A DNA stretch of 64,000 nt from an uncultured Actinomycetota bacterium. Its GTDB lineage: Bacteria > Actinomycetota > Actinomycetes > Streptosporangiales > Streptosporangiaceae. Within the stretch, counting starts at the first letter, position 1. Each line of letters starts with the position of its first letter. The notes below the pieces were generated by a model. That model worked only from the letters and a program-made list of their open reading frames with translations, did no database searches and was not told the origin of the DNA. Shown piece by piece: positions 4,981 through 60,405 of this stretch. A program made the translations under genes and the position numbers. The stretch spans positions 1,201,823 through 1,265,822 of the forward strand of contig CAWAPP010000007.1 of assembly GCA_963783935.1 (NCBI GenBank), in the 5' to 3' direction.

Positions 4981-5015
4981 AACGGCAACCTGCGATTTAC
5001 CGGAAAGGCTCATTC

Positions 5016-5165: not shown

Positions 5166-5254
5166 GCCGTGAAGCGACGCCGTGGTGACCGGCCGGCCGA
5201 GGTGCCGGCTCGCCTCGGCGCCGCTTCGGTGTCTGCTGCCGATCGCCAGGGAGG

Positions 5255-26074: not shown

Positions 26075-26090
26075 CCCCGCGCTGCGGACG

Positions 26091-26129
26091 GTTGTATAGT
26101 TACGCTTATAATAAACGTAGTTATACAAC
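26091..26129 (+). promoter_or_regulatory. AT-rich near-palindrome GTTGTATAGTTACG-N11-CGTAGTTATACAAC containing TATAAT
   Basis: A 14-bp stem is possible in RNA (two G-U pairs) with an 11-nt loop. TATAAT at 26107-26112. Strikingly AT-rich for this DNA. Lies between the potA-like stop and the ATPase gene. Confidence 0.35.
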
Positions 26130-26175
26130 TGGGGGCCTCATCAACGGTGAAACTGGCGTGGATAGGCCGGCTGAC

Positions 26176-32672: not shown

Positions 32673-32937
32673 TGACTCAAACCGCCCATATCGCCCGGCC
32701 GCCAGCCTGGCCGACCGCGACTCCACGGACAGACTGTCGCTCGTCACTCCCCGGGAAACGCACCCATGGCCCATCGATGTCGTTTGCGCGATCTGGGGTT
32801 ACCGCATCGATGGCCCATGGTTGCGGTAGGAGCAGCATCGATGGCCCATGGTTGTTGTTGCCTGGCGGCCGCGAACCGCATCGGTGGGCCATCGTTGCTG
32901 CCCCGCCCGGACAGTTGCGGCAAATGCCCCGGATGCA

Positions 32938-37528: not shown

Positions 37529-37541
37529 CGTCCGCCTCCTG

Positions 37542-41889: not shown

Positions 41890-42348
41890 ATGCGCCGGTT
41901 GCTTGTCGTTCACCACACGCCGTCCCCGGCGATGCAGGAAATGCTCGAGGCCGTGCTCAGCGGTGCGCGCAACGACGAGATCGAAGGCGTAGAAGTAGCG
42001 GTAACCCCGGCCCTGACCGCCGGCGCGGCGCAGGCCCTTGCCGCCGACGGCTACCTGCTCGGCACCCCCGCCAACATCGGCTACATGTCCGGCGCGCTCA
42101 AGCACTTCTTCGACGGCATCTATTACCCCTGCCTCGAAGCCACCAAGCGCCGCCCCTACGGCCTGTACGTACACGGCGCGAGCGACACCACCGGCGCCGT
42201 CAAAGCCGTCGAGTCAATCACGACCGGCCTGGCCTGGCGCCAGGCCAGGCCCCCGGTCCTGGTCACCGGCCCGCCCAAGCCCGCCGACCTGGAAGCCTGC
42301 TGGGAACTAGGCGCCATCCTCGCCGCCGAACTAGCGGCCGAGCCCTAA
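41890..42348 (+). CDS. flavodoxin-like fold / NAD(P)H-dependent FMN reductase-like protein
   Basis: 152 aa. MRRLLVVHHTPSP.. and GYLLGTPANIGYMSGALKHFFD fit the flavodoxin_2/FMN_red pattern. Confidence 0.7.
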   Translation: MRRLLVVHHTPSPAMQEMLEAVLSGARNDEIEGVEVAVTPALTAGAAQALAADGYLLGTPANIGYMSGALKHFFDGIYYPCLEATKRRPYGLYVHGASDTTGAVKAVESITTGLAWRQARPPVLVTGPPKPADLEACWELGAILAAELAAEP

Positions 42349-43440
42349 GCCGATTCTCGTGCCGGGTGCTCGGCTGGACAAAATGCCCATAGTGTCGACC
42401 ATAGGCGCAACGATGTCCCACCGATACTGCTCGCCGAGCCCGACTAACCGCAACGATGTCCCATGGGTGTGGCTGTGGCGGGTGGAGGTGGTCAGGCGGC
42501 GAGGGCAGGCGTACTAGCTTCGGCGGGTTGTGCGGCTGGTGTTTCGCGTGTGGCTGGAGCGGCAGGTGAGATCCAGTCCTGGCTAGCGGTTCCATGATCG
42601 TGGAAACCCCGAATGGCGGGCCATCTGAGGTTTCCACAATCATGGAACCTCCACCCAGAAGAGCCACGCCTATGTCCCATCGATGCTGCGGGCACAGCAT
42701 CGGTGGCTCTGGCGCATATAACGTGATGGTAACGGTGAGGGCGGGGGCTGATGGGCTGATGCTTGGAGGTCAGGACTTGTCACGGGGTGGCGGGGCGCTG
42801 ATCCGGCTGACGGCAGCCGCCCCGGCAACCGCAAGGCCGGCCGGGCGCCGATCCCGCTTGCCGCAGCCGCCCCTGGCAACCCGCAAGACCGACAATTCGC
42901 CCGAGCCGGCCGGCCGCCAGGGCACGCGAGCCGCTGCGGCGGTCGCGAACTGGCCGGCGACACCGGCTGACCGGACATTTCAGCTCACCTCACCGCAACG
43001 ATGGCCCAGCGATGCTGTCCGGCGGCGACGGCCAACCGCAACTATGGGCCATCGTTGCTGCGGCAACGACATCCATGGGCCGTCGTTGTGGTTGCCCGGC
43101 CGGGCTGAGCAGCATCGATGGCCCATCGTTGCGGTTGCGGTTGCGGTTGCGGTTGCGGTTGCGGTCCCGGGCCTGGCGGCCAGGTGCCCTGGTGAGTCAA
43201 GAGCCGGGGACCCGGACGGCGGGCACCCGGATCCGGGAGCGGAAAGAGCCGGGAACCGGGTCGCCAGGAACGACGCTGCCGCACCTAACGCCGTTACCTT
43301 CACGTTATGTGTGCCAGAGCCGCATCGATGGGCCATGGTTGTCGTTCGCCCGGCCCGCTGAACAGCAACGATGGCCCAGCGATGATGTTGATCAACTTCG
43401 CCCGCGCAGCCAGAATGGGGCCGCGCCGATGTGGGGAGCG
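42349..43440. repeat. intergenic repeat cluster R5
   Basis: GCAACGATGG-type palindromes (42395-42470, 42985-43125, 43310-43385). Hairpin element copy A (42530-42649). Hexamer GTTGCG x6 (43128-43163). All ORFs overlap each other and read as junk. Confidence 0.8.
42530..42649 (-). mobile_element. ~120-bp palindromic element, copy A (hairpin GGTTCCATGATCGTGGAAACC..GGTTTCCACAATCATGGAACC plus ~60-bp tail)
   Basis: 61-bp hairpin at 42589-42649. The tail 42530-42588 is the reverse complement of the tails of copies B and C (..GGATCTCACC.GCC.CT.CAGCC.CACG.G.AACACC.GCCGCAC). Confidence 0.6.
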
Positions 43441-43674: not shown

Positions 43675-45357
43675 CTAACGCGCGGTCAGCCGAAACACGA
43701 TCAGATCGCCGCTGGCGGTCAGGACCTGCGCGCCAGGAAGTCTGGCCAGGTCAGCGAGGCGATCTCGGGGTTGCCCGAGCAAGGGTCCCGCGTCAACGAT
43801 GACGTACCTGACCCCCGCCCTCAGCAGGACAGACGTCAGCGGGCGCCCGGAACCGGACGTGATCGCCGGTCCCAGGACCCGGGCCGCCGCGCTCTCGGCG
43901 GCCACCGTCGTGCTCCCGACCTGCAACGCGTCATTCCAGATCATCGCCCTGGACAGCAGCCGGGGCCACGGATCGAACACGGGCTCGCCGTGATTCCACG
44001 GATATCGCCGGTACTGGGCCCACGGCAGCAGCAGGACAGAGCCTGACTCGGTGGCCGAGTCGATGACCTTGCGCGCCGCCAGCCAGTCTCCCGGATACTC
44101 CACCGCCCGAAGCCGCCCGAACGCCCCCCACGCCAGCCCGGGCAGCAGCACCACCGGCGCGAGCAGCGCGAGCACCCCGACCAGGGCCGTCGCCCCCGCG
44201 AGCCCATCGGCCCGCGAGCGTTCAGCCGGGGCGGCAAGCACCCAGAGCACAGCGGCCCCGAGCCCGGCCGACTCAGCCAGCGCCAGCGGCGCGATGAACT
44301 GCTGCCCGTCCCTGAGCAGCGCGAACGCCGGCCAGAACGAGATCGCCGAGCGCAACAAGGCCAGCGTAGGCGCCCAGGTACCGACCGCCGCGACGCAGAA
44401 CCCAAGCAAGGCCGCCACCCCAAGCCCAGGGCACACCCGGCGCGACCGCGCGACCAGCACGTATCCGCCCAAGGCGACGAGCACCACCGCCAGCCACGCC
44501 ACGGACACAGCCACGCCGCCATACCCGGCAGGCACGGCCTGACCATTCCAGATCCCGCCCAGCATGACCAGGCTGCCGAGCGCCCCGAACGGAGTATCCG
44601 CCCGCGCCGCGAACGCGTTCGCTCCGTTCGGGTCGGCGTGCACCGCCACGAGCAGCGAAGGAATCACCCACGGCAAGCTCGCGACCAGCAGCACCGCGAG
44701 CGTGATGACGGCCCGCCTGAACCGCTCCGCCACCGGACCCCGGCCACAGAAGGCCACCGCAAGTGCCGCGATCGCCGTAATCGACATCGCCGCGAACCCG
44801 CCGATCGCCGCAGGCAAGATGGAGACCACGAGCCGCCAGACCCTGAGCTTCCCCGACTCCGACCAGCCCGCTAGCTCCCGCAGCACCCACGGCAGCCCGG
44901 CGTACCCGAGCAGCAGCGCCCACTGCCCCATGATCAGCCGCTCGGCGACGAACGGGTTCCACGCGTAGAACACCCCAGCGACCAGCCGGCCAACCACGAG
45001 CCGCCAGTCACCGCCCGGCGGCGACTTCCACCTAGCCGAAACCAAGGCCGCCGCTCCGGCACAGGCCGCCGCGAAGATTGCCAGCAAGATCAATTTTTCC
45101 GCAAATTCAGCGGGGACGACTCTCGCCAGCAGGGCAACGACAAGGTCGCTAGGCACCGCCCGAGCCGGCCCCCCGGTAACCCCGAGATCAGCGACGCCGA
45201 TCGGCGGCCGGGGCACGAACACCAGGTCGTACGACAAAACGAACCCGCGCCCAAGCCCCGGCCCAAGCGCCAGCAACCCAAGAACAAGCCCGGCCACGGC
45301 CGGAAGGATGTGGGAGATGCCCGCAGAGCCGGGGCGCGCCTTAAAGCGCGCCGGCAT
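43675..45357 (-). CDS. polytopic membrane protein of unknown function (possibly GT-C-like)
   Basis: More than 10 hydrophobic segments followed by a C-terminal soluble domain. Start set at MPARFKARPG (45357), so the G/C hairpin at 45358-45395 is intercistronic. Confidence 0.65.
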   Translation of the reverse strand: MPARFKARPGSAGISHILPAVAGLVLGLLALGPGLGRGFVLSYDLVFVPRPPIGVADLGVTGGPARAVPSDLVVALLARVVPAEFAEKLILLAIFAAACAGAAALVSARWKSPPGGDWRLVVGRLVAGVFYAWNPFVAERLIMGQWALLLGYAGLPWVLRELAGWSESGKLRVWRLVVSILPAAIGGFAAMSITAIAALAVAFCGRGPVAERFRRAVITLAVLLVASLPWVIPSLLVAVHADPNGANAFAARADTPFGALGSLVMLGGIWNGQAVPAGYGGVAVSVAWLAVVLVALGGYVLVARSRRVCPGLGVAALLGFCVAAVGTWAPTLALLRSAISFWPAFALLRDGQQFIAPLALAESAGLGAAVLWVLAAPAERSRADGLAGATALVGVLALLAPVVLLPGLAWGAFGRLRAVEYPGDWLAARKVIDSATESGSVLLLPWAQYRRYPWNHGEPVFDPWPRLLSRAMIWNDALQVGSTTVAAESAAARVLGPAITSGSGRPLTSVLLRAGVRYVIVDAGPLLGQPRDRLADLARLPGAQVLTASGDLIVFRLTAR

Positions 45358-45395
45358 CCGGGGGGTTCCGGGGGGTCGCCCCCCCGGGCCAACAC
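45358..45395. repeat. G6/C7 hairpin repeat CCGGGGGGTTCCGGGGGGTCGCCCCCCCGGGCCAACAC
   Basis: Near-identical 37-38-mer at 52179-52215. CCGGGGGG-TCG(C)-CCCCCCGG forms an all-G:C 8-bp stem. Fills the gap between two co-directional genes. Confidence 0.7.
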
Positions 45396-45398
45396 AGT

Positions 45399-46247
45399 TC
45401 ACGATTTACGGGCGTGGACGAGCAGGATCGACGATGCCGATGGCCAGTAGCAGAACAATCGGTCGGCCGGGCGCAGGATAGGCGGGACATCGTGGTACCG
45501 GGCGCCGGCTACGCGGACGCAAGAGAATCCGTACGCTTCGAGGAACTCGACCAGCGCTCGCTTGGTGAACATGTGCAGGTGCCCGGCGACCTGGCTGCCG
45601 GGCCGGCCGAAGACGCCGCGCAGGCTGACCTCGGAGAAGATGGGTTGGACGCCCAGGGCGAGCAGGCCGCGGTTGTACCAGGACGCGAGGTTGGGCGTCG
45701 AGAGCAGCAGCGATCCTCCCGGCTTGAGCACCCGGTGCGCCGCCTCGATCGCCGCGTCGGTATCCACGAGGTGCTCGATCACCTCGCTCATCACGACCAC
45801 GTCGACGGTGCCCGCCGCGAGCGGCAGGCTTGGTGCGTCAATGCTCGCCCTGACCACGGTGATCCCGCGATCCCCGGCGATCTTGAGCGAGGAGGCGGAC
45901 CAGTCGAGGCCGACGAAGCGATGCCCAGCATTGCGGTCGGCCGCGACCTTAGTGGCGAACCCGTCCCCGCAGCCCACGTCGACGATCAAGGCGGGCGCAG
46001 CTACGCCTCGGAGCAAGTCGGCAAGCATCGCCGCCTGCCGGTAAGCCCGGTCGGGCCCCGAACTCGCCGGAACGGCCGGGTCCTCGTAAAAGTCACGCAG
46101 CGCGTTGCCCGTGGTACCGCCGGGGATTGCGGGGCTCGCGGAACCCCTGAGGCTGGTGTCGTCCGTGGGATCTCCGGAGCTTACGGGGTCAGCGGGATTG
46201 CTGAGGCTGGTGTCGTCCGTGGAGCTGACGGCCGGGAGGCGCGGCAT
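45399..46247 (-). CDS. class I SAM-dependent methyltransferase
   Basis: Motif I LIVDVGCGDGFATKVAA. Start set at the MPRLPAVSS ATG (46247), which overlaps the upstream glycosyltransferase stop by 1 nt (TGATG). The longer listed ORF overlaps that gene. Confidence 0.8.
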   Translation of the reverse strand: MPRLPAVSSTDDTSLSNPADPVSSGDPTDDTSLRGSASPAIPGGTTGNALRDFYEDPAVPASSGPDRAYRQAAMLADLLRGVAAPALIVDVGCGDGFATKVAADRNAGHRFVGLDWSASSLKIAGDRGITVVRASIDAPSLPLAAGTVDVVVMSEVIEHLVDTDAAIEAAHRVLKPGGSLLLSTPNLASWYNRGLLALGVQPIFSEVSLRGVFGRPGSQVAGHLHMFTKRALVEFLEAYGFSCVRVAGARYHDVPPILRPADRLFCYWPSASSILLVHARKS

Positions 46248-47531: not shown

Positions 47532-48242
47532 ATGTTGAGGTCTGTCCGGCTGTTCCGGCTGTTCCTCACTGAGCAGCAGGATCCCGACGGCTTCTACTCC
47601 GCGCTTGCCAGGGACGCAGCGGCGCAGCTCGGGAAGTTCGTCGCGATCGCCGGGCGGACCGTGCTCGACATCGGCGGCGGGGCCGGCTACGTCACCAGGG
47701 AATTCAGGTCCCAGGGGGCGAACTGCTACCTGCTCGAGGTCGACCAGTCTGAGTTGCTCAGCCGGGGCGACCCGCCGCCTGGCGCCATGCTCGCGGACGG
47801 CTTCTGGCTTCCGGTCAGGGACGGCGGTGCCGACGTGTGCGTCTCGTCGAACGTGCTCGAGCACGTCAGGGATCCGCACGGCCTGATCGAGGAGATGGTC
47901 CGGGCTACCAAGCCTGGCGGGCTGATCTACCTGTCCTTCACTAACTGGTTCTCGCCGTGGGGCGGACACGAGATGTCGCCCTGGCATTACCTCGGCGCGG
48001 ACCTCGCCGAGCGCCGGTATGTCAGCAAACACGGTAAACTTCCGAAAAATCGGGTCGGCAGCAGCCTGTTCCGCGTGCATATTGGCCAGATACTGAAGAT
48101 GATGCGAGATCGCTCCGATGTTCAGGTCGTGTCCGCCCGCCCGCGGTACTACCCGGCCTGGTGCCGGGTGCTGCTTTATGTGCCTGTCATCCGTGAGATC
48201 GCTACCTGGAATCTGCTGCTGATCTTGCGGAGGACTGATTGA
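47532..48242 (+). CDS. class I SAM-dependent methyltransferase
   Basis: Motif I VLDIGGGAGYVTREF, post-I ...LLEVD, and VCVSSNVLEHV. 4-nt overlap with the downstream gene. Confidence 0.85.
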   Translation: MLRSVRLFRLFLTEQQDPDGFYSALARDAAAQLGKFVAIAGRTVLDIGGGAGYVTREFRSQGANCYLLEVDQSELLSRGDPPPGAMLADGFWLPVRDGGADVCVSSNVLEHVRDPHGLIEEMVRATKPGGLIYLSFTNWFSPWGGHEMSPWHYLGADLAERRYVSKHGKLPKNRVGSSLFRVHIGQILKMMRDRSDVQVVSARPRYYPAWCRVLLYVPVIREIATWNLLLILRRTD

Positions 48243-51200
48243 CCATCGCGCGGGATCAGGTCCGCGACGAGGCTGAACTACCTGCGGCCAGCCCACCCGC
48301 GGATCGTCCGCGCTCCATCACCAGGTGGGTCGCGCTCGTCTGGCTGGTTGCCTTTCTTATCTTGCTCGCTAACGCTTCCGGGCACATATTCTTCGACACC
48401 AAGCTCGGCGTTGACATCGATCCGGCCAGTTTCCTCGCCCGCCTGTGGCAACTGTGGAATCCGTACGAATGGTTCGGCACGCTTCAGGATCAGTACATCG
48501 GCTACGCCTTTCCCATGGCGCCTTTTTACCTGGTCGCCGAGGCACTTAAATTCCCAGTCTGGATAACCGAGCGGCTCTGGCTGGCGACGCTCATCGCGGT
48601 CGGTTTCGCCGGTCTGCTCAAGCTGGGACGAGCGGTTGACCTCGGCACCGACCGGTCCCGAGTGGTCGCCGGGGTCGTATTCGTACTCTGGCCGACGTTC
48701 ACGATCGCGATCGGCTCCACCTCGGCCGGGCTCATCCCTGGCCTGCTAGCGCCGTGGGCCGTGCTGCCGCTCGTCCGGGGCGCCAAGACCGGTTCGGTGG
48801 TTCGCGCGGCGGCGCTGTCGGGGGTAGCCGTCCTGTGCATGGGCGGAGTCAACGCCACCTCCACGCTCGACGCCCTGATCCTGCCCGCGGCGTTCGTCGT
48901 CACCCAGACGCGCGGGCGCAGGCTGGTCATGCTGTCGCTGGCCTGGGTCGGTGCGGTCGGGCTCGCCACGATGTGGTGGGTCGGTCCGCTGCTGCTGCAG
49001 GCCAGGTACTCGTTCAACTTCCTGCCCTACATCGAGCAGTCGGCGACCACCACGGCCACCATGTCGGCGGCGACCTTCCTGCGCGGAGGCGGCAACTGGA
49101 CCGCCTACTTCAACCTGGGCCAGCCCTGGGTGAACGCCGGCTGGACGGACGTCACTAACCCGTTCTGCATCACGGCCGCAGCGATCGCGGCCGGGATCGG
49201 GCTGCTCGGGATTGCCCGCAGGGACCTGCGTTACCGGGGCTGGCTGAGGCTGGCCCTGGCGGCGGCCGCTCTCGTCGCGCTCGCCGGGTACCCGGGAGCG
49301 CTCGGCGGCCTGTTCCATCATCCGATCGACCAGTTGCTCAACGGCGTACTCGCCCCGCTGCGCAGCGTCTACAAGGTGGAGCCCGCGGTCGCCGCCGTGC
49401 TCGCACTCGGGGTCGCGCACGCGCTCGTGCTGAGGACCAGGCGGACCGCGATCATCTCTGATCCGGCGAACCGCACCCTCTGGCACCTGCTCGCCGCCCC
49501 GGTGATCGCGCTGGTCCTGCTCGGCCTCGCCTACCCGTACGTGACCGGCCAGGTACTCAATCCAGGCTCTTTCAAGTCCGTTCCCGGCTACTGGTACCAG
49601 GCGGCGGCGTTCATCAAGAAGCACTCGCCGAACGCTCCCGCCCTGGTCGTCCCGGCCGCCGCGCACGGCACGTTCCTGTGGGGCGAGTCGGAGGACGAGC
49701 CGCTTGAGCCGCTGGCAAGCTCGCCCTGGGTCACCCAGGGCCTGGTGCCCTACGGCGGCGCCGGCTCGCAGTTGCTGCTCACCTCGCTGGAAACGGCGGT
49801 CGACTCGGGCGAGGACGTGCCCGGCCTGGCCGCCACGCTGGCCCGCTCGGGCATCCGCTACGTGGTCGTGCGCAACGACCTGAACCCGAACGCGCTCGGC
49901 TACACCCCGCCGCAGACCGTGCACAACGCGCTGCGAAGCTCGGGATTCCGGCGGGTCGCCGTCTTCGGCCCCCTCGTCACCGGGGAGCAAACCGATCCCG
50001 GGGCAATCGAGATCCAGTACGCACTGCCGTCTTATCCGTCGGTAGAGATTTTCGCAGCCAAAGGTGCACAAGGAACTGCCGTACCCCCGCCGGCGCTGGC
50101 CCTCCCGGTCAGCCGCACGGTCCTGGTCAACGGCGGTCCCGACGCGATGCTCCAGCTCGTCGGCCAGGGACTGCTCAAGTCCGCGTCCCCGGCGGTCATC
50201 GCCGGCGACAAGCTGGTCACCGCCCCGGCGACCTGGGCGGTGACCGACTCGCTTGCCCGCGCCGATCACTCGTTCGGCCTCATCGATAACTCGCCGTCCT
50301 ACACCTACACCGCGAAGGAGACCAACCCGTCCGGCGACCCCCTTGGCGGCGCCGGCCAGCCGCCCAGGCAGCTCCTTCCGGTCAGCCCGGCCGGGCATCA
50401 GACCGTCGCGGTGCTGTCGGGCGCGGCCAGCGTGACGGCCTCGTCGTCTGGATCCTGGCTGGCGGAGACGCCGCAGATCGACCCGGTGAACGCCTTCGAC
50501 GCCAATCCAGGTACCTACTGGACCGAGGCGAGCCCGACGACGCCGGTCGGCCAGTGGATCCAGATCAACTTCAGCCAGCCGATCGTGCTGACCGGCCAGA
50601 TCGGCATCAAGCTGCTGATCGGTGATCGCCCCGTCGCCGACCAGCTCACGGTGCACACCGCCGCGGGCACTGTGACCAGCCACGTGCTGCCCGTCGGCAC
50701 GCTGCAGGCGCTGCCGGTCCCGGTCGGCGAGACCAGGATGCTGCGGGTCACGATCACCGGCGCCCGCGGGCAACTGCCCGGCGGCCCTGGCGCCGGAATC
50801 ACCGATATCAAGATCCCTGGCGTCACCGTGACCAGGTACTCGGCACCGGCGCAGAGCCCGGCCGGCCAGCGGGCCGCGCGGGTCGAGTTCTCCTTCAGCC
50901 GGGCGGTGCCCTCACCGGCCAGCCTGGCCGACGTGACCGCGTTCCCGCCCCTCGCCAGGCAGATCTTCACCAACTCGGCTGGCACCTACAAGTTCTCGGC
51001 CACCGCGATCGCGGTACCAGGCCAGAAGCTCGACGCGCTGCTCGCCCGGCTGACCCCGGCCCGCAAGTACGCGCTCGAGGTGACCGCGAGCTCCACCTGG
51101 GGCTCGCTGCCTGACCTGGCCCCGGTCCGGCTGTTCGAGAAGGGCAAGCAGCGCGGCTCGTGGATCGCCGGGGCCGGCCTGCCGGTGCTCCGCCTGAGCT

Positions 51201-52585
51201 GGCGGGGCAAGCGCACGATCCGCCGGCTGGTGATCCTGCCCGTCGCCGGCTTCGGTGCCGCGCCGGAATCGATCAAGATCACCAGCCCCGACGGCGTCAG
51301 GTTCGCCAGCATCGGGCTCGACGGGCTGACGACGCTGGTGCCGCCGCTGACCACGAACCGGATGAGCATCAGCTTCCCGGTCGTGCAGTACACCGTGGCC
51401 GGTTCTGAGTCGGCCTCGGGACAGTCGGCCCAGCTCCCGGTCGGCTTGTCGAAGCTGGCCATTCCCGCCTTGCACGGGCTGAGCCCGACCACGCTGTCCG
51501 GCTCGGCTACGTTCAGGCTCCGCTGCGGCAGCGGCCCGGCGATCACCGTCGACGGGCAGCGGATGCCGACTCGGATCGCAGGGACGGTCGGTGACCTGAC
51601 GAACTTCAGGCCACTGCGGGTCAGCCTGTGCTCCGCGGGCTCGGTACTGCCGCTTTCCCCCGGACAGCACCGGCTTCTGGCGTCAAGGCCCGCTCCTTTC
51701 ACGATCACGGGCCTCAGCCTGGTCAGCCAGCCGGCCCCGGCGCCCAGCCCGGCCGCCGGGGCCGGTCGGCCCATCAAGATCTTGTCCTGGCAGCCCGAAT
51801 ACAGGGAAATCAGGCTCGCGCCCGGCGCGGCTTCCTACGTCGAACTGCACCAGAACGCCAATCCCGGCTGGGTCGCCAGCCTGGACGGGCGGGCCCTCAC
51901 ACCGGTGACCCTGGACGGCTGGCAACAGGGATTCGTGGTGCCCGCAGGAAAAGGCGGCGTCATCGCGATGACCTTCGCGCCGGACAGGTTTTATCATCTC
52001 TGGATTATTATTTCCGCGATCGCGGCCCTAGCCCTGCTAGCAATCGCCCTGATTCGCCGGAGACTGTCGGCGCGCGGCGCCGTCTGGACTGAGGAGCGAG
52101 GAGCGAGGCACGAGCGAAGGAGCGAGGAGGGAAGACGGCGCAGTGAAGGGGGCAGGGGCGGTGGGCGGGGAGCCGACCCCGGGGGGTCCGGGGGGTCGCC
52201 CCCCCGGGTCAACACCTTCCTACAGTTCGCCGGGCTATGTCTGCTGATCGCCATACTCGGCCGCTACACCGTCTTCGCCGTCCCGGTGATCGCGCTGGCG
52301 GCCTGGCGGTGGCCGAACTGGTACGGCGCGATCGCGCTCGCTGCTGCCGTCGCGACCGGCCTGCTCACCGTACTCACCGGGTCGAGCGCGCCGAGCTCCT
52401 CCGGCGCTTTCGGCGCACCCGCTCAAGCTTGCGCGCTGATCGCGCTGGCCGTCGCCCTGATGCCGGTGCCGCCCGAGGTCAGGTGGGCGAGCTGGCTGAA
52501 CCGGCTGCCGCTCCTGCGCGAGATGCCGGGCAAGATGGCCGGCAGGCGGCGGAAGCCTGATGCGGAGGCGTCCAGTGACGGCTAG
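48239..52585 (+). CDS. aftD: alpha-(1->3)-arabinofuranosyltransferase AftD-like (DUF3367) giant membrane glycosyltransferase
   Basis: 1448 aa. N-terminal GT-C-like region (GHIFFDTKLGVDIDP..YIGYAFPMAPFY). Discoidin/F5-8-type-C-like segment (AFDANPGTYWTEASPTTPVGQWIQINF). C-terminal TM helices. Size and layout match mycobacterial AftD. Confidence 0.8.
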   Translation: MTIARDQVRDEAELPAASPPADRPRSITRWVALVWLVAFLILLANASGHIFFDTKLGVDIDPASFLARLWQLWNPYEWFGTLQDQYIGYAFPMAPFYLVAEALKFPVWITERLWLATLIAVGFAGLLKLGRAVDLGTDRSRVVAGVVFVLWPTFTIAIGSTSAGLIPGLLAPWAVLPLVRGAKTGSVVRAAALSGVAVLCMGGVNATSTLDALILPAAFVVTQTRGRRLVMLSLAWVGAVGLATMWWVGPLLLQARYSFNFLPYIEQSATTTATMSAATFLRGGGNWTAYFNLGQPWVNAGWTDVTNPFCITAAAIAAGIGLLGIARRDLRYRGWLRLALAAAALVALAGYPGALGGLFHHPIDQLLNGVLAPLRSVYKVEPAVAAVLALGVAHALVLRTRRTAIISDPANRTLWHLLAAPVIALVLLGLAYPYVTGQVLNPGSFKSVPGYWYQAAAFIKKHSPNAPALVVPAAAHGTFLWGESEDEPLEPLASSPWVTQGLVPYGGAGSQLLLTSLETAVDSGEDVPGLAATLARSGIRYVVVRNDLNPNALGYTPPQTVHNALRSSGFRRVAVFGPLVTGEQTDPGAIEIQYALPSYPSVEIFAAKGAQGTAVPPPALALPVSRTVLVNGGPDAMLQLVGQGLLKSASPAVIAGDKLVTAPATWAVTDSLARADHSFGLIDNSPSYTYTAKETNPSGDPLGGAGQPPRQLLPVSPAGHQTVAVLSGAASVTASSSGSWLAETPQIDPVNAFDANPGTYWTEASPTTPVGQWIQINFSQPIVLTGQIGIKLLIGDRPVADQLTVHTAAGTVTSHVLPVGTLQALPVPVGETRMLRVTITGARGQLPGGPGAGITDIKIPGVTVTRYSAPAQSPAGQRAARVEFSFSRAVPSPASLADVTAFPPLARQIFTNSAGTYKFSATAIAVPGQKLDALLARLTPARKYALEVTASSTWGSLPDLAPVRLFEKGKQRGSWIAGAGLPVLRLSWRGKRTIRRLVILPVAGFGAAPESIKITSPDGVRFASIGLDGLTTLVPPLTTNRMSISFPVVQYTVAGSESASGQSAQLPVGLSKLAIPALHGLSPTTLSGSATFRLRCGSGPAITVDGQRMPTRIAGTVGDLTNFRPLRVSLCSAGSVLPLSPGQHRLLASRPAPFTITGLSLVSQPAPAPSPAAGAGRPIKILSWQPEYREIRLAPGAASYVELHQNANPGWVASLDGRALTPVTLDGWQQGFVVPAGKGGVIAMTFAPDRFYHLWIIISAIAALALLAIALIRRRLSARGAVWTEERGARHERRSEEGRRRSEGGRGGGRGADPGGSGGSPPRVNTFLQFAGLCLLIAILGRYTVFAVPVIALAAWRWPNWYGAIALAAAVATGLLTVLTGSSAPSSSGAFGAPAQACALIALAVALMPVPPEVRWASWLNRLPLLREMPGKMAGRRRKPDAEASSDG
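52179..52215. repeat. G6/C7 hairpin repeat, second copy, inside the aftD-like CDS
   Basis: CCGGGGGGTCCGGGGGGTCGCCCCCCCGGGTCAACAC, translated in frame as ..DPGGSGGSPPRVNT.. at the end of a Glu/Arg/Gly low-complexity stretch. Confidence 0.7.
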
Positions 52586-53930
52586 GACTAAGTTCGCCGT
52601 CGCTGACGAGCTGACCTGCTACTACGATCGGCCGGCTGAGCCGGCGAACGTGCACGTCGAGGCTCAGCTCGCAGCGCCGCTCGACGAGTCGGCCGTGCGG
52701 GCCGCGGTAGCGGCCGTGCTCGCCGCTGAGCCCGGCCTGCGGGTCCGGCGGGCCGCGACCGGGAGTTGGCGGTCCAGCTATTACTGGGAGTTTCCGCCGG
52801 TCATCGACCTGGATCCGGTTGAGGTTGTCAGCTACGCCGACGACGCGGAGCTTGACCGGCACCGGGCGGCCTTCCTGTCGCGATCGCCTTCGCTGGCGAC
52901 GTCGCCTCCGGTGCGATTCCTGCTCGGCGGCGACGTGCTCATGCTGAACGCCCATCACGCCTGCTTTGACGGGCTGTCCGCGTTGCGGTTGCTGCGCCGG
53001 GTGGCCGCCGAATACAGCGAGCTGACCCGGGTCGGAGGGGGGAGGTCCATGATCGTGGAAACTTTTGATGGCTATAACACCCGAAGTTTCCACAATCATG
53101 GAGTCCCCGCCGGGGGAGAGATCCCACTAGCCACTCCAGCCTCACGAGAGACACCGGCAGCGCCGCCGCCGGGGAAAAGCACCGGCCGGGTCGTGCGGAT
53201 CGCCGGGGACGCTGACCGGCGCGCTCCTGGTTACGGCACCGTGCAACTCACCTGGGACGGGCTCACGGCGGTGACCGGCGTTCTGCGGGCGGCCGGGTAC
53301 AGCGTCAACGATCTGCTGATCGCGGCGCTGATCGTCACCATCGGCGAGTGGAACGCCGCGCGCGGCGGCTCGTCCGGGCTGATTAAGATCACGATGCCGG
53401 TGGGGGATCCGGTCCAGGCCACCGAGCAGGGGGAGTGGGCCAACCGGTCGCGGCTGACCAAGGTGACCGCCCGCCCGGCCGCAGTCGACACCGCGGCCGG
53501 CCTCCTCAGCGAGGTGGCGGCGCAGACCAGGTACGCGAAGAACCACGACAGCGGCCAGGTTGACGTGCTGTCGGCGGCGCTCGCCCTGGCGCCCGTTCCG
53601 GTCTCGGTCAAAGGGATCACACTCCGTGCCATGCTGCGCGTGGCCGGGCCTATTTGCTGCGATACTTCACTGATCTCTAATCTCGGCGTGGTAACACCGG
53701 TTCGCTTTGGTACGGCAGGTGACGCGTACGTGTGGTTTTCCACCTCGGCCCACTTGCCGCGCGGGCTTTCTGTCGGCGCTGTGACGACTGACGGCAAGCT
53801 CCGGCTGACCTTCAGGTACCGGCGGGCGCTGCTGACCGGGGCGGCCGCCGCCGAGTTCGCGGCGAGTTACCGCCTGGCCCTCGATGCGGTGCTTGATGGT
53901 GCGGCCGTGGCCGCGGCGGTGCCTGAGTGA
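52560..53930 (+). CDS. condensation-domain-like acyltransferase (HHxxxDG; PapA/WS-DGAT-like)
   Basis: Catalytic motif LNAHHACFDGLSA. 456 aa. Contains an in-frame palindromic element at 53046-53165. GTG 52575 is an alternative start. Confidence 0.75.
   Translation: MRRRPVTARTKFAVADELTCYYDRPAEPANVHVEAQLAAPLDESAVRAAVAAVLAAEPGLRVRRAATGSWRSSYYWEFPPVIDLDPVEVVSYADDAELDRHRAAFLSRSPSLATSPPVRFLLGGDVLMLNAHHACFDGLSALRLLRRVAAEYSELTRVGGGRSMIVETFDGYNTRSFHNHGVPAGGEIPLATPASRETPAAPPPGKSTGRVVRIAGDADRRAPGYGTVQLTWDGLTAVTGVLRAAGYSVNDLLIAALIVTIGEWNAARGGSSGLIKITMPVGDPVQATEQGEWANRSRLTKVTARPAAVDTAAGLLSEVAAQTRYAKNHDSGQVDVLSAALALAPVPVSVKGITLRAMLRVAGPICCDTSLISNLGVVTPVRFGTAGDAYVWFSTSAHLPRGLSVGAVTTDGKLRLTFRYRRALLTGAAAAEFAASYRLALDAVLDGAAVAAAVPE
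53046..53165 (+). mobile_element. ~120-bp palindromic element, copy B, in frame within a CDS
   Basis: Hairpin TCCATGATCGTGGAAACTT..AAGTTTCCACAATCATGGA (53046-53102) plus a tail homologous to copies A and C. Translated as SMIVETFDGYNTRSFHNHGVPAGGEIPLATPASRETPAAP. Confidence 0.6.
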
Positions 53931-56308: not shown

Positions 56309-57850
56309 ATGGGGTTCTGGGCGCGCGCGCAAGAAAATCCTGACTGGGTCGCGGTAGTCGAGCCGGACGGGACCGAGCACAAGGCAGGCGACTTGCTCGG
56401 CCGTGCTAACCAGATCGTGCACGCGCTGCGCGAGCGGGGGCTCCGCGCGGGCGACGGCATCGCCGCCCTGGTACCTAACGGCGTGGCCCCGGTCGAGCTC
56501 TACCTGGCCGCGCTCCAGGCCGGCTGGTACTACACACCCGTGAACTGGCACTTCACCCCGCCCGAAATCGCTTACATCGTGCGCGACACCGGTGCCAAGG
56601 CGTTCTTCGTGCATTCTCGGTTTGCCGATGCCGGGGTAGCCGCTGCGGACGAGGCCGAGGTGCCCGGCGATGCCCGGTTCAGCTTCGGCGCCGTGCCCGG
56701 GTTTACGCCAGTCTCTTCCCTGCGCGAGGGGCAGCCGGTAAGCCTGCCCGGTGACCGCGCCTCGGGGACCGCGATGCACTACACCTCGGGTACCACCGGC
56801 CTGCCCAAGGGGGTCAGGCGGGCTCTGATCGGACTCGACCCCGACGTGTCGGCGGACCTGCTCACCGGGCTTCTCCAGTTCTTCGGCGTGACCGAAGGCG
56901 GCTCGAACGTGCACCTGGTCACGTCGCCGGCTTACCACACCGCGGTGACGATGTTCGGCGGCTGCGCTCTCCAGTTCGGGCACACCCTGGTGATGATGGA
57001 TAACTGGGACGCTGAGCAGGCGCTCGACCTGGTGCAGCGGTACCAGGTCACGAACACGCACATGGTGCCGACGCAGTTCAAGCGGATGCTGACGCTGCCG
57101 GAGGACGTGCGCGGCCGTTACGACGTGTCGTCGATGAAGTGGATGATCCACGCTGCGGCTCCCTGTCCGGTGCCGATCAAGCGGGAAATGCTCGACTGGT
57201 GGGGGCCTTGCGTCTACGAGTACTACGCCGCGACCGAGGGCGGCGGGACAATCGTGACGCCGGAGGAGTGGCTGGCCAAGCCGGGGACGGTTGGCAAGGC
57301 CTGGCCGGGCAGCGAGGTCATCGCGGTCGATGACGATGGCGTGGAAGTTCCGGTCGGGACGCCTGGCACCGTCTACATGAAGATGGGCGTCATGGAGTTC
57401 GAGTACAAGGGCGACCCGGACAAGACCGCCGCTTCCCGGCTGCGCGATTACTTCACCGTGGGGGACATCGGGTTCCTTGACTCCGACGGGTTCCTGTTCT
57501 TGTGCGACCGCAAGTCGGACCTGATCATCTCGGGCGGGGCCAACATCTACCCGGCCGAGATCGAATCGGAGATCGTGACCCATCCGAAGGTCGCCGACGT
57601 GGCGGTGTTCGGCATTCCGGACGAGGAGTGGGGGGAGCAGATCAAGGCCGTGGTCCAGCCTGCGGAAGGGGTCTCGCCTTCCGATGAGCTGACCGCCGAG
57701 ATCCTCGCCTCGCTCGACGGGCGGCTGGCCAAGATGAAGTGGCCGAGGTCGATCGATTACGTGGAAGAACTGCCCAGAGACCCGAGCGGCAAGCTGTTGA
57801 AGCGCAAGCTGCGCGAGCCGTACTGGGCCGGCCGCTCCACCGCCATCTGA
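56309..57850 (+). CDS. AMP-dependent acyl-CoA synthetase/ligase (FadD-like)
   Basis: AMP-binding motifs MHYTSGTTGLPKGV, YYAATEGG, GDIGFLDSDGFLFLCDRKSDLIISGGANIYPAEIE and a C-terminal PRDPSGKLLKRKL. Confidence 0.9.
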   Translation: MGFWARAQENPDWVAVVEPDGTEHKAGDLLGRANQIVHALRERGLRAGDGIAALVPNGVAPVELYLAALQAGWYYTPVNWHFTPPEIAYIVRDTGAKAFFVHSRFADAGVAAADEAEVPGDARFSFGAVPGFTPVSSLREGQPVSLPGDRASGTAMHYTSGTTGLPKGVRRALIGLDPDVSADLLTGLLQFFGVTEGGSNVHLVTSPAYHTAVTMFGGCALQFGHTLVMMDNWDAEQALDLVQRYQVTNTHMVPTQFKRMLTLPEDVRGRYDVSSMKWMIHAAAPCPVPIKREMLDWWGPCVYEYYAATEGGGTIVTPEEWLAKPGTVGKAWPGSEVIAVDDDGVEVPVGTPGTVYMKMGVMEFEYKGDPDKTAASRLRDYFTVGDIGFLDSDGFLFLCDRKSDLIISGGANIYPAEIESEIVTHPKVADVAVFGIPDEEWGEQIKAVVQPAEGVSPSDELTAEILASLDGRLAKMKWPRSIDYVEELPRDPSGKLLKRKLREPYWAGRSTAI

Positions 57851-57899: not shown

Positions 57900-59040
57900 G
57901 CCTCGTCCGGTGCGCCGCCTCGCCCGGTACTTCTTCAGCAGCAACGGTGGCCCACGGATGCTGTTGCTAACCACGTGACGGCGACAACGATGGGCCTGGC
58001 CTCAGGGAGTGAACCGGGGCTGGTGTGACTAGCGTGCCCTTAGTGACTGCCGGGGCTGGCGGGGTTGAGGGTCCGGCTGGCGGTGGCGCTGGTGACCGCA
58101 TCGGTGGGCCATCGTTGCGGGCCGGCGGGCCGGGCTAACGACATCGATGTCCCAGGGTTGCTGTTCCCGCAGCATCGATGGGCCATCGTTGCGGTCCGGC
58201 GCCGCCTGGCAACCGCATCGGTGGGCCATCGATGCGGCCGGCCGGGCATTACGAGCGTTTTGTCCCGCCCGGGTCCTGGTGGGCACTGGCTAGAGGCCGC
58301 TAGCCCGCACTCCATGATCAACTCAAGCTACGTGGCATGTTTCTGACCGCACCTTGGGACAGGGGTGGGGCTCTTATGGACGGGAGGGCCATGATCGTGG
58401 AAACCTCGGGTGCTGGGACAACCCGAGGTTTCCACGATCATGGAATCCCCGGACAGGGCCGGGTCTCACCAGCCACTTCAGCCGCACGAGGAACACCGGC
58501 CGCACCGCAGAACCCGAGCCAGTGCGCCCGTCCTCGCTGCCGACACCATCCCTCCCAAAGAGCACCCGACCATGGCCTACCGTCGCGGTTGCCCGCCCGG
58601 CGAGAAAAGCAACGGTGGGATATGGGTGCATTTCTTTTGGCGTGAGCGTGCGGCGGGGCTGAGGGGTCGGGATTCCGGCAACAGTAATGCGGGGTTTACT
58701 GTTGCCGGGCAACAGTAATGGGGGCTTTACTGTTGCGCCCGGCGACCGGGAAGGGCGGCGTCCCCGGTTGTCCCGCCTGTGATCTCGCGCACGGCACCGG
58801 CGTGATTACGCGCTGATCGTACTGCTGCGGGAAGCGAGAGTGGCGGCGCGCCGGTGCTGAGTGCAACCCCGCATCCATGTTGATCGACTTCGGCGGCGGT
58901 CAAAGATCCGCCGCCTGGCGCCACCCGCACCGCAACGATGGCACAGCAATGCGGTCGGGGCGGTTGGGGCGGTCGGGGTTGGCGGCCGGGCGGCCGGGCG
59001 GTCGGGGCAGTCGGGCGCCCAGGGCCACGGGCAGTCACAT
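57900..59040. repeat. intergenic repeat cluster R6
   Basis: Palindromes CCGCATCGGTGGGCCATCGTTGCGG (58096-58120), 58172-58192, 58213-58237 and others. Hairpin element copy C (58389-58505). Two tandem hairpins GGCAACAGTAA..TTACTGTTGCC (~58677-58740). G-run tract 58957-59007. Confidence 0.8.
58389..58505 (+). mobile_element. ~120-bp palindromic element, copy C (intergenic)
   Basis: Perfect 23-bp arms CCATGATCGTGGAAACCTCGGGT / ACCCGAGGTTTCCACGATCATGG (58389-58443) plus the conserved tail. Confidence 0.65.
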
Positions 59041-59337
59041 CTGACGTGCTTTCGCATTTGGGACCAGTTCTCGCTTACTGGCACGCCAGTTAAGTATTGC
59101 CCTCAGGCATATGGACAATGGCCGGCTGGGCGGTGCCATTGCTGTTCGCCTGGGTGCTGGTCCTGCGAAAGTGGGCATTTGGCGGTTGAACGGCGGGTGA
59201 AAATATGTATTTCTGCTGGTGGCCGTGGCTGTCCGGTCAAAAGTGACTGTCCCGCGCTCTGGGCCGGATAGAGATGATCTTGGTTGCTAGGCCGTAAATT
59301 TTCGCGTGTTAGCCTTTATTGCTTTTGCATTGCGCGG

Positions 59338-60405
59338 ATGGCAGCCATCGGGAGGAACCGGAACTTGAGCACGCAGCAGGAGCAAGAGCCGCAGGCCCCC
59401 GCTATCGGGCACCGGACGTTTACCTGGTTCCAGCCGCAGGGTCGGCGGCCGACCGAATATGAGCTCTATACCGTTGGCCATCAGTCGTCGCCGAAAGAGT
59501 GGCTGAGGGTTGGCTGGCCGATCCGGTTTGACAACGGCCGGGAGCCTTATGCCGAGGAGTCGACTAAGGTGCGGTCTTCGCGGTGGCGGGACTGGCGGGA
59601 TCCGGCCCAGCTCTGGCAGCGGCCGTACGTGCAGGCGTCGAACTTTGGTGAGCAGGCACTCGACCGGCTGATCCCGGCCGCGCTGGCGGGCGGGCAACTG
59701 GCGTCGGTCAATGAGACCTGGCTAGCTGAGGCGGTCGGCAAGTACTACGCGGCTTGGCCCTACGCCGAGTACGGGCTGTTCCTCTGCTTATGTTATTCGG
59801 TGCGGGAAGCGCTGGCTGACACCGTGATGTTTGCCTTGGCCTTCGAGGCTACCGACAAGCTGCGCCATCAGCAGGATGTCGTGCGGCTGCTGCTCGACTT
59901 GCAGGAGGCCAGGCCGGGGTTCACCGACGATCAGGCTAAGGACGCCTGGATGTCAGGCCCGATTTTCCGGCCGGTGCGGGAGAACATTGAGCGGATCTAC
60001 TCAGCCGACGACTGGGCCGAGGTTCTGATCGCGATCAACCTGGCTTTCGAGCCGCTCATCGGGTCGCTGGTCAAGGACGAGTTCCTGGCCAGGAACGCCA
60101 GCTACAACGGCGACGCGGTGACCCCGATGATCCTCGCCGGCGTCCGGGTTGACACAGAACGTCAGCTGGCCACGACCCGGAGTTTCGTCGAGTTCCTGAT
60201 CAGCGATCCTGAGCACGGATCGGCTAACCGGGCGGTGATCGCCGGGTGGGCGGACCGGTGGACGGAGGAGAGTCTGGCGGCCGCGACGGCTGCCTCAGCG
60301 TTGTTCGACCTTGACGGGATCACGCTCGCCGAGGACGGAGAGGTCGCGCTCGGCCGGGTTGCCGCCGCGCAGGCGGCTTTGCTCGGCGGACTCGGGATTG
60401 GCTAG
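59338..60405 (+). CDS. soluble di-iron monooxygenase hydroxylase beta (small) subunit
   Basis: About 350 aa, sitting directly upstream of coupling-protein, alpha and reductase genes. Helical text consistent with SDIMO beta subunits. Start uncertain: ATG 59338, or TTG 59365 which lies 7 nt after GGGAGGAA. Confidence 0.7.
   Translation: MAAIGRNRNLSTQQEQEPQAPAIGHRTFTWFQPQGRRPTEYELYTVGHQSSPKEWLRVGWPIRFDNGREPYAEESTKVRSSRWRDWRDPAQLWQRPYVQASNFGEQALDRLIPAALAGGQLASVNETWLAEAVGKYYAAWPYAEYGLFLCLCYSVREALADTVMFALAFEATDKLRHQQDVVRLLLDLQEARPGFTDDQAKDAWMSGPIFRPVRENIERIYSADDWAEVLIAINLAFEPLIGSLVKDEFLARNASYNGDAVTPMILAGVRVDTERQLATTRSFVEFLISDPEHGSANRAVIAGWADRWTEESLAAATAASALFDLDGITLAEDGEVALGRVAAAQAALLGGLGIG

Follow-up and report, generated by a model that had tools for sequence, protein, structure and literature searches.

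A non-coding repeat fragment read in frame within a condensation-fold acyltransferase gene of an actinobacterium

Introduction

How does a palindromic repeat come to be translated within an apparently functional enzyme, and does its presence there reflect a habit of the repeat or a single event? The question is raised by an acyltransferase gene in a 64-kb stretch of genomic DNA from an uncultured actinobacterium (64,000 nt, analyzed as a whole and referred to below as the window), in which a preliminary description had recognized an in-frame copy of a repeat that also occurs between genes, and had compared it with the Rickettsia palindromic elements (RPEs). In the RPE section of PMC10969869, which refers to the source studies of Ogata et al. 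(2000, 2002), 44 RPE integrations are given for R. conorii, and nearly half of RPEs are placed inside open reading frames (ORFs).

Results

Copies of the repeat in the window

A hidden Markov model (HMM) of the repeat core (136 columns, built from the three window copies) gave three full matches in the 64 kb (nhmmer E-values 5e-40, 3e-39, and 5e-37) and no fourth. All three consist of a hairpin (CCATGATCGTGGAAAC…GTTTCCACRATCATGG) followed by a tail, and their pairwise identity is 68-74% over 129 nt. The core matches are as follows.

53038-53166, forward strand: genic copy, 129 nt or 43 codons, inside CDS 52560..53930; core-HMM E-value 5.5e-40; hairpin arms 53047-53062 and 53086-53101
58380-58508, forward strand: core of the intergenic copy at 58.4 kb; hairpin arms 58389-58404 and 58428-58443
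42527-42654, reverse strand: core of the intergenic copy at 42.5 kb; hairpin arms 42592-42607 and 42630-42645

One genic and two intergenic copies, that at 42.5 kb being inverted, had been described before, and both sequence and coordinates bear this out (E-values of the order of 1e-37 to 1e-40). The 16-nt arm alone has eight matches at up to three mismatches (0.46 expected). A supposed additional copy at ~51690, where the upstream AftD gene read in another frame yields an SFHDHG-like peptide, was rejected, as nhmmer returned nothing there and the DNA match was partial.

The repeat had been taken for a 120-bp element; this length covers only the core of a composite unit of ~260 nt bounded by terminal inverted repeats of ~40 nt. 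The alignment between the stretches 58340-58599 and 42441-42699 extends for ~260 nt.

58340..58599, forward strand: full-length copy, ~260 nt; left inverted repeat ~58346-58388, hairpin 58389-58443, tail, right inverted repeat ~58546-58589; in a 1.4-kb non-coding region between genes 56309..57850 and 59284..60405
42441..42699, reverse strand: full-length copy, ~260 nt; terminal inverted repeats 42450-42489 and 42647-42686, hairpin 42592-42645; in a 1.3-kb non-coding region between convergent genes 41890..42348 (forward) and 43675..45402 (reverse)

The inverted-repeat scan found perfect arms of 23 nt in the 58.4-kb copy, and the terminal repeats of the 42.5-kb copy form 40-nt arms that are 75% complementary. 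Both intergenic copies thus carry terminal inverted repeats; the genic copy has none. When searched with the full-length HMM (266 positions), the gene matched positions 47-175 only (nhmmer E-value 3.6e-23). A left-flank motif occurs in both intergenic DNA copies and, by eye, its translation is apparently present also in protein sequences P0125-P0128; the genic copy lacks it. The intergenic tails continue for ~35 nt beyond the end of the genic tail. No direct repeats were recognizable at the genic junctions or at the ends of the two full-length copies, where neighboring REP-like units blur the boundaries.

These units belong to a second repeat. A 21-nt palindrome, GCAWCGATGGSCCATCGWTGC, has 23 copies in place of the expected 0.01, all of them outside ORFs with high GC3, and forms alternating arrays with a fixed spacing of 43/31/43 nt, mixed with other motifs including the hairpin element. 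It is this 21-mer that represents a short, high-copy extragenic palindrome, the 55-nt hairpin element being embedded in its arrays. An extended REP variant, with CTCCACC beside the REP unit and no core, lies at 17588-17631.

Copies beyond the window

Counting the three window copies and five more in public protein sets, at least eight copies are detectable, of which one lies inside a real protein; the five others are spurious ORFs, short and called in intergenic DNA. Three of these came from an exhaustive search of representative sequences, where clustering at 50% hides any insert behind an insert-free representative, and two from a profile of six sequences. A word-indexed protein search returned no match to the 47-aa peptide query; it also missed the window's own protein and the known positives P0001 and P0123, and is unreliable for such short queries. 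Solo hairpins with the same arms were found twice in foreign DNA in a scan of genome contigs and once in a metagenome scan. The census covers the window and the public protein sets, and further genic or core-only copies may exist elsewhere in the genome.

Within this census, recurrent in-frame insertion into many unrelated genes was not seen (one genic copy among those detected, in an incomplete count), nor was a conserved peptide in a single frame: the left arm of the 42.5-kb copy and of P0125, P0126, P0127, and P0128 is read as HDCG/EDHD, not MIVET. The suggestion of an RPE-like coding habit, i.e., a tendency to colonize genes, finds no evidence in one genic copy out of at least eight. The element was also considered as a gene for a small protein; this was rejected, since reading frames vary among the copies. 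A length of ~260 nt, at least eight copies, and no protein conserved across them are traits of small non-coding miniature elements (MITEs), and the best explanation of the repeat is a lineage-specific, non-coding, MITE/BIME-like element of ~260 nt. Its layout would comprise terminal inverted repeats of ~40 nt with a REP-like unit at their outer ends, a hairpin of 55 nt whose outer arms are invariant, and a tail of ~100 nt.

Scans of viral contigs and of plasmid collections revealed no copy of the element. In Rfam there was no match at gathering thresholds, and relaxed E-values yielded generic miRNA-precursor hairpins far below threshold. A literature search with the 14-nt arm sequences produced no report, and nothing useful on actinobacterial MITE or REP sequences either.

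The host gene

The gene that contains the repeat lies in a cell-envelope glycan/lipid cluster whose gene order is the same in four relatives (L003, L005, L006, and L007).

48239..52585, forward strand: upstream gene, AftD-like GT-C glycosyltransferase (Pfam GT-C_AftD, E-value 7e-193)
52560..53930, forward strand: host gene, intact; 456-aa stand-alone condensation-fold acyltransferase with HHACFDG at residues 132-138

Both the HHxxxDG motif and the two-lobe CAT-like fold are present in the host protein. The Pfam Condensation family (PF00668) matches with an E-value of 1.2e-5 and 24.7 bits, below the gathering cut-off of 30.6, and the NCBIfam WS/DGAT model gives 25.6 against a cut-off of 309.95. 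Foldseek returned C, E, and Cy domains of NRPS (E-values 1e-17 to 1e-15). The gene is a distant, unnamed member subfamily of the condensation-domain superfamily, and an identical 456-aa protein is present in an NCBI/ENA-derived protein collection.

The genic copy occupies residues ~160-202 and, as had been described, begins 25 codons past HHACFDG and is read in frame without a stop codon (...GGGRSMIVETFDGYNTRSFHNHGVPAGGEIPLATPASRETPAAP...).

53047..53101: genic hairpin, 55 nt, CCATGATCGTGGAAAC...GTTTCCACAATCATGG, encoding SMIVETFDGYNTRSFHNHG
53102..53166, forward strand: genic tail, encoding VPAGGEIPLATPASRETPAAP

In the AlphaFold2 model (pTM 0.84) the lobes on either side of the insert are confident, while pLDDT is below 50 at residues 161-197, a stretch that follows helix 138-159 and precedes strand 225. 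The insert is thus predicted to sit in a disordered inter-lobe linker, a site that the fold tolerates; this linker is of variable length, 34-91 aa in the orthologues (median 52) and 60 aa here. Comparison with the L003 orthologue gave dN/dS of 0.23 for the N lobe, upstream of the insert, and 0.29 for the C lobe, downstream of it, values that point to purifying selection on both lobes, and every invariant residue of the family is retained. The possibility that the insertion had disrupted the fold and left a pseudogene fails on these dN/dS values, the conserved motifs, and the model confidence.

Absence of the segment from relatives

The segment is a derived feature of this gene. A word search for MIVET and FH[DN]HG found it in none of 119 orthologues, and the corresponding gap is visible in an alignment of 26 sequences, so that the segment has no native homologue at this position, contrary to what the reverse direction of transfer would predict. 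A search of the syntenic DNA of L003, L005, L006, and L007 (51 kb together) with nhmmer revealed no copy of the repeat. In the databases there is no relative of >75% identity in which the site is empty; the breakpoints given here are approximate, and native linker may have been lost. Aligned with the native linker of L003, the closest relative, the genic tail scored 15, which is not significant (p~0.09; p 0.94 for the 42.5-kb copy). A native origin of the tail, prompted by an 'RET' match to P0002, was rejected, as the DNA likeness to L003 is within chance.

Composition and reading frame of the segment

The homology of the segment to the repeat extends through the tail, which aligns locally with the tails of the other copies with scores of 26-32 where the null gives 11 +/- 2, i.e., 8-10 standard deviations above shuffled sequences. 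Its composition is foreign to the gene: GC3 is 0.525 in the insert, a value typical of non-coding DNA, and 0.837 in the rest of the CDS; the hairpin has 44% G+C, and the residues F, I, M, V, Y, W, L, N, and H make up 55% of those that it encodes vs. 14% in native linkers. Among six hairpins compared, the genic one is the most degraded, with 20 Watson-Crick pairs and 5 mismatches, and its folding energy (DNA parameters) is -13.4 kcal/mol vs. -28.7 for the 58.4-kb copy. As RNA, the genic region folds with -54.6 kcal/mol over 131 nt (z = -4.1 against shuffles). The 16 substitutions specific to the genic copy are spread 5/6/5 over the three codon positions and give no sign of selection on the insert peptide.

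The open frame had been remarked on before. Half of all 120-nt frames in this window of 67% G+C are open, and the absence of a stop codon is therefore unremarkable and carries little weight. Both intergenic copies are indeed open in the equivalent frame, as claimed, but the loop of the 42.5-kb copy is 1 nt shorter, so the frame of its tail is shifted.

At the left junction, native GGGGAG(A/G)G (L003/L007) faces GGGAGG of the element, and at the right junction native GC.GC.CCGCC faces GCCGCACCGC; microhomologies of 8-10 nt such as these are common by chance in G+C-rich DNA coding for Pro, Ala, and Gly.

Discussion

Origin of the insert

The segment is a tolerated in-frame insertion, neither a pseudogene lesion nor the source of a spread gene fragment, because it is missing from all 119 orthologues, has foreign GC3, and occupies a variable, disordered linker between lobes under purifying selection. 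We consider it probable (about 0.7) that the acyltransferase linker captured, in frame and by a route other than canonical transposition, a fragment of a non-coding repeat that has since been a neutral passenger. An internal piece of 129 nt, running from ~10 nt before the end of the left repeat through the hairpin and over the proximal two thirds of the tail, would have been copied into the acyltransferase gene and landed between the N- and C-terminal lobes, in a disordered linker free to vary in length and sequence. By chance, the piece would have arrived in one of its two open frames and with a length divisible by three. Given the tolerant linker, the open frame, and this length, the enzyme would have survived, with ~43 extra residues now translated. 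The even spread of substitutions and the decay of the genic hairpin suggest that the insert is probably neutral, with no selected peptide or RNA function, a reading based on 16 substitutions and a structure prediction. Since the genic copy has no terminal repeats and its junctions fall in 8-10-nt stretches common to element and linker, short microhomologies may have let the piece in through recombination or template switching.

Canonical transposition appears unlikely. Here the mobile unit would be the ~130-nt hairpin-plus-tail core, the ~40-nt inverted repeats being halves of a palindromic REP-type target and the gene another target. With the core removed, the flanking arms of the 42.5-kb copy (…GGGTGGAGGT / ACCTCCACCC…) would abut to give one long palindrome, the extended REP variant at 17588-17631 is core-free, GGGGGGAGGT precedes the genic copy too, and solo hairpins sharing the element's hairpin arms are found in other genera. 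However, the right ends differ, the intergenic tails being longer than the genic one; a target-site duplication was seen at none of the copies, whose ends REP-like units blur; and the DNA copies number only three.

A broader role of the hairpin would also be rather improbable. At least four genomes of different families share the 14-nt outer arms (ATGATCGTGGAAAC/GTTTCCACGATCAT) without variation, while the interior is unrelated, yet self-complementary, in each copy, and the hairpin might be the recognizable module of an undescribed actinobacterial mobile palindrome, expanded here in the composite repeat and able to colonize disordered linkers in frame, as RPEs do. If so, some conserved enzyme acting in trans would have to read the arms.

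Retention of the insert for a function is very unlikely. An RNA hairpin acting on translation or mRNA decay, an internal start for a product limited to the C lobe, and a peptide linker module come into consideration, as the predicted RNA structure is strong, GGGAGGTCCATG provides a Shine-Dalgarno-like motif 3 nt upstream of an in-frame ATG at 53049 (GGAGG-N3-ATG), and the gene is still intact though the copies have diverged to ~70% identity. However, of the six hairpins the genic one is the weakest, substitutions are not biased by codon position, disorder is predicted for the region, the stretch 52400-53600 has neither an intrinsic terminator nor a promoter consensus, no Rfam family exceeds its threshold, and the spacing from motif to ATG is short, with the ATG buried in the stem.

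Hardly credible, finally, are a native segment that gave rise to dispersed gene fragments, a recent pseudogene, or a mis-assembly across the repeat: the tail peptide (…PASRETPAAPPPG…) looks superficially like the native linker (…PARPRETGNADGPVLPPRAG…) found in the closest orthologue, and repeats can cause assembly errors, but the DNA likeness behind that resemblance is not significant, no orthologue has the hairpin part, GC3 is of the non-coding type, the intergenic copies carry extra flanks missing in the gene, the frame and all conserved motifs run on downstream under a dN/dS of 0.29, and copies only ~70% identical are too diverged for assembly collapse.

Comparison with known repeats

Capture of a repeat fragment resembles RPE insertion in its outcome, and to this extent the proposed likeness holds: a palindromic repeat of ~100-150 bp, also found between genes, is translated in frame within a protein that otherwise functions, at a site that suits the fold (RPE section of PMC10969869). 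It does not extend to a recurrent coding habit. As that section presents them, RPEs enter genes repeatedly, whereas here one of at least eight copies is genic. Each RPE encodes a conserved peptide; here the frame after the loop varies, and the peptide shows no constraint. Moreover, the host is an unrelated high-G+C actinobacterium, and what the gene contains is part of a larger element. The comparison is a matter of functional analogy only.

Overlap or fusion of MITEs with ORFs is known for intragenic ERIC copies, Coxiella QMITE1/2, Anabaena MITEb/MITEe, and pneumococcal BOX (PMC10969869; PMC5896051). The present element resembles bacterial MITEs in being small, non-autonomous, multi-copy, mostly intergenic, and strongly structured by prediction, in having terminal inverted repeats, and in that occasional copies lengthen or interrupt ORFs in frame (PMC10969869; PMC5896051). 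In contrast to MITEs, no target-site duplication was recognized at its ends, blurred as these are by REP-like units, and its terminal repeats are built from an array-forming REP-like unit. QMITE overlaps lie mostly at the C-terminal ends of genes, whereas the insertion described here is internal, between two enzyme lobes. The companion 21-mer, strictly extragenic and arranged in alternating arrays of fixed spacing with mixed motifs, is similar to proteobacterial REP/BIME sequences (PMC3733652; PMC3184786), although the GTAG/CGTC tag is not evident; compared with a typical REP, the hairpin element has a greater length (55 nt) and a much lower copy number.

In-frame MITE and RPE insertions being well documented, current concepts are unchanged: the phenomenon itself is already known from Rickettsia and other bacteria, and the acyltransferase adds a real, single, and probably neutral case. 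The analysis also flags the hairpin composite and the 21-nt REP-like array unit as undescribed families of repeats, and gene callers translate both into spurious 'hypothetical proteins'. Taken at face value, the locus is a clean actinobacterial case of non-coding repeat DNA absorbed by a working enzyme; with an insert that is clearly derived and apparently drifting neutrally in a disordered linker, it illustrates which sites accept such insertions and how sequence is added to linkers.

Repeat copies and the host gene

The window has a G+C content of 67%, being actinobacterial DNA, and Streptosporangiaceae is the label on its nearest relatives in a protein search. The preliminary description had reported a palindromic hairpin with a conserved tail in three places, and this arrangement was recovered: a profile HMM of the three copies found all of them in the 64 kb (E 5e-40 to 5e-37) and no fourth, and the 16-nt arm gave 8 matches in the window with up to three mismatches (0.46 expected). 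One copy lies within an acyltransferase gene.

48239..52585: AftD-like GT-C glycosyltransferase gene, upstream of the acyltransferase (Pfam E 7e-193)
52560..53930: acyltransferase ORF, 456 aa, HHACFDG at residues 132-138
53047-53101, plus strand: genic hairpin, 55 nt, CCATGATCGTGGAAAC-(loop)-GTTTCCACAATCATGG, followed by the conserved tail
58389-58508, plus strand: intergenic hairpin and tail, arranged as in the genic copy
42527-42645, inverted: intergenic hairpin and tail, arranged as in the genic copy

The genic region folds as RNA at -54.6 kcal/mol (z = -4.1). In RNAalifold the hairpin persists, a few of its pairs being compensated, whereas the tail yields nothing convincing; no Rfam family matches the element.

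The acyltransferase ORF is adjoined downstream by a NIPA/DMT-type transporter gene, and relatives share the order methyltransferase, GT4, methyltransferase, AftD-like, acyltransferase, NIPA-like, Trm112-like, PorA, AMP-ligase. An identical 456-aa protein is present in an NCBI/ENA-derived collection. The match to Pfam Condensation is weak (24.7 bits, under the 30.6 cut-off); the confident two-lobed AlphaFold2 model (pTM 0.84) has condensation, epimerisation and cyclisation domains of NRPS as top PDB matches (E ~1e-17). From its first start codon the ORF overlaps the AftD-like gene by 26 nt (52560-52585), the corresponding overlap in relatives being 4 nt (10001/10004 in L003, a syntenic locus); therefore, the true start may lie a few codons downstream.

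Insertion into a tolerant linker

Four lines of evidence identify the genic segment as an insertion, in agreement with the expectation that orthologues would lack it. First, nothing corresponds to RVGGGRSMIVETFDGYNTRSFHNHGVP in relatives in a 26-sequence alignment, and MIVET or FH[DN]HG words occur in 0 of 119 orthologues. Second, no copy was found in 51 kb of syntenic DNA from four loci (L003, L005, L006 and L007) encoding proteins 68-73% identical. Third, GC3 of the insert is 0.525 vs 0.837 in the remaining CDS, the G+C content of its hairpin being 44%. Finally, hydrophobic, aromatic, Asn and His residues make up 55% of the hairpin-coded residues vs 14% in native linkers, which are rich in Ala, Gly, Pro and Arg.

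The tail peptide (PASRETPAAPPPG) superficially resembles the linker of the closest orthologue (PARPRETGNADGPVLPPRAG). That the tail is native linker was ruled out, as the match at the DNA level is not significant (score 15 vs null 11.5 +/- 2.1). Compared with one another, the three tails score 26-35; hence it was the repeat that moved into the gene and not the reverse.

The gene is not a pseudogene, the outcome that the preliminary description had set against itself: all family-invariant residues are retained on both sides of the insert, and dN/dS vs the L003 orthologue is 0.23 (residues 1-152) and 0.29 (residues 210-456). In the AlphaFold2 model the linker runs from the helix at 138-159, after the catalytic motif, to the first C-lobe strand at 225, and the insert coincides with the only internal low-confidence stretch (pLDDT <50 at 161-197). 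Linkers of orthologues have 34-91 residues (median 52), and that of the window, with 60, is within range; linker length and predicted structure thus place the insert in a tolerant site. As the insert takes up 43 codons and the linkers of the five closest relatives are just 34-44 residues long, part of the native linker was probably lost or replaced. Across the family, insertions and duplications concentrate at this site; in orthologue P0011 the linker has the peptide PVTSPARAAQAS in 2-3 tandem copies (alignment A2, columns ~200-260).

Structure of the full repeat

The intergenic copies align over ~260 nt (58340-58599 and 42441-42699, 170 identities in 267 columns) and carry inverted repeats, so that a unit of ~120 bp, as initially proposed, was not borne out. 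A REP-like palindrome of 21 nt, GCAWCGATGGSCCATCGWTGC, makes up the outer ends of the inverted repeats. It has 23 copies in the window vs 0.01 expected, all outside high-GC3 ORFs, and forms REP/BIME-like arrays with 43/31/43-nt spacing.

42450-42489/42647-42686: inverted repeats, ~40 nt, 75% complementary
~58346-58388/58546-58589: inverted repeats, ~40 nt
1330-1424; 17220-17621; 32760-32898; 42407-43385; 57941-58952: extragenic arrays of GCAWCGATGGSCCATCGWTGC

Of the full-length HMM, the genic copy covers positions 47-175 alone (53038-53166, 129 nt), and the intergenic copies are longer; what the gene carries therefore appears to be an inner piece of a composite repeat of MITE/BIME-like type. 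In the chief rival reading, the mobile unit proper would be the ~130-nt core, with a preference for palindromic targets of the REP type. In its favour, taking out the core would join the flanking arms into a single palindrome, and an extended REP variant (CTCCACC…CCATGGGCCATCGATGC) without the core is present at 17588-17631; against it, the genic and intergenic copies end at different points on the right.

The palindrome is far commoner in the window than the hairpin element and nearly absent from the relatives' 51 kb (at most one copy in L003, L005, L006 and L007); gene callers translate it as MGHRCG, QRWPIVA or IDGPSL in spurious ORFs. The same repeat-rich intergenic regions contain a (GTTGCG)n hexanucleotide microsatellite of ~7 units (43128-43169) and a tandem pair of 29-nt palindromes, GGCAACAGTAATGCGGGGTTTACTGTTGC (58677-58736). 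A crude gene filter (ORF >=120 aa, GC3 >=0.78, GC2 <0.62) left 1056-5255 and 26074-28511, each multi-kb, without genes; these stretches may contain pseudogenes or genes of atypical composition, or else further non-coding DNA rich in repeats. A compositionally distinct block of 3-4 consecutive minus-strand genes (35637-38888) has GC3 of 0.92-0.93 vs 0.80-0.88 elsewhere in the window, and low GC1 (0.53-0.61).

Reading frames and further copies

Five more copies were found in public protein sets as short spurious ORFs, none being a real domain-bearing protein (P0123 and P0126 on a 4.31-Mb contig, P0125 on a 0.49-Mb contig, and also P0127 and P0128). By eye, in those that extend over the left flank, the translation apparently contains it (…VWLFGIEDHD…, …VWLSWMEDHD…, …RLLGVEDHD…), and several carry the REP-like motifs MGHRCG and QRWP. 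Genic copies amount to 1 of at least 8 known.

Two of the six frames of the genic copy are open, and the gene uses +2 (MIVET…), so the claimed reading without a stop codon stands; the openness of the intergenic copies carries little weight, as 50% of all 120-nt frames in the window are open. In the 42.5k copy and in P0125-P0128 the loop is 1 nt shorter and the left arm lies in another frame than the tail; the element therefore encodes no conserved peptide. In each copy, the left-arm ATG is preceded at a distance of 3-4 nt by a Shine-Dalgarno-like GGAGG.

53041-53051; 58383-58393; 42643-42653 (minus strand): GGAGG-ATG sites

As the genic ATG (M164) shares the reading frame of the C lobe, internal initiation there is conceivable, despite its burial in the stem.

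Age and route of entry

Identity among the three copies is 68-74%, and the synonymous distance to L003 is 0.6-0.75. As the copies are less diverged than this dS predicts for an earlier burst, they are compatible with a burst specific to this lineage and later than its split from that of L003. Differences specific to the genic copy (16 positions) fall 5/6/5 on codon positions 1/2/3, and, of six hairpins compared, its own has decayed furthest (20 Watson-Crick pairs, 5 mismatches; -13.4 kcal/mol vs -28.7 in the 58.4k copy). These numbers, although small, fit an insert drifting neutrally as a passenger.

Both terminal repeats are missing from the genic copy, and no target duplication is visible there. 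At the left junction relatives have GGGGAG(A/G)G (L003 ACGGGGGAGAGTCC; L007 GCCGGGGAGGGCAC), and the element has GGGAGG(G/T)(C/T)CC directly before the hairpin; at the right, native GC.GC.CCGCCGCC faces the element's GCCGCACCGC. Entry could have involved recombination or template switching at these microhomologies, possibly from a copy 5-10 kb away; this route is tentative, since the matches are short, G+C-rich and easily fortuitous.

Solo hairpins in other genomes

Exact scans for ATGATYGTGGAAAC-N15-35-GTTTCCACRATCAT in 185,579 species genomes and JGI metagenomes yielded three solo hairpins, with ~3e-4 matches expected by chance by our own estimate.

L001 7554-7605: Planosporangium flavigriseum
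L002 4649-4700: Streptosporangiaceae MAG
L004 372-423: metagenome contig

They are intergenic and have neither tail nor flanking inverted repeats. All six hairpins agree exactly in the outer 14 nt of each arm; the inner ~24 nt differ in sequence from one hairpin to the next, showing no relationship, yet are self-complementary within each, perfectly so in the foreign ones. This pattern hints at an arm-reading factor or a palindrome-regenerating copying mechanism. A literature search brought up no account of the motif. A conserved actinobacterial mobile hairpin able to colonise protein linkers seems improbable.

Comparison with known systems

Fusion of small repeats in frame with genes is documented for several families (PMC10969869; PMC5896051). 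Rickettsia palindromic elements (RPEs) have 44 integrations in R. conorii, nearly half of RPEs lying in ORFs (PMC10969869); other cases are intragenic ERIC copies, Coxiella QMITE1/2, Anabaena MITEs and BOX elements. In outcome, the window's gene resembles these cases. The element shows neither the recurrence in genes nor the conserved encoded peptide of RPEs, and most features of MITEs are present, only in its intergenic copies. What survives of the preliminary interpretation is a translated piece of repeat in an intact gene; the 120-bp unit and the RPE-like coding habit do not. The case is solid and tidy, yet single and conceptually familiar, and is best filed as a known phenomenon, the new part being a composite repeat in an actinobacterium, of which a single fragment is tolerated in frame in the linker of an enzyme.
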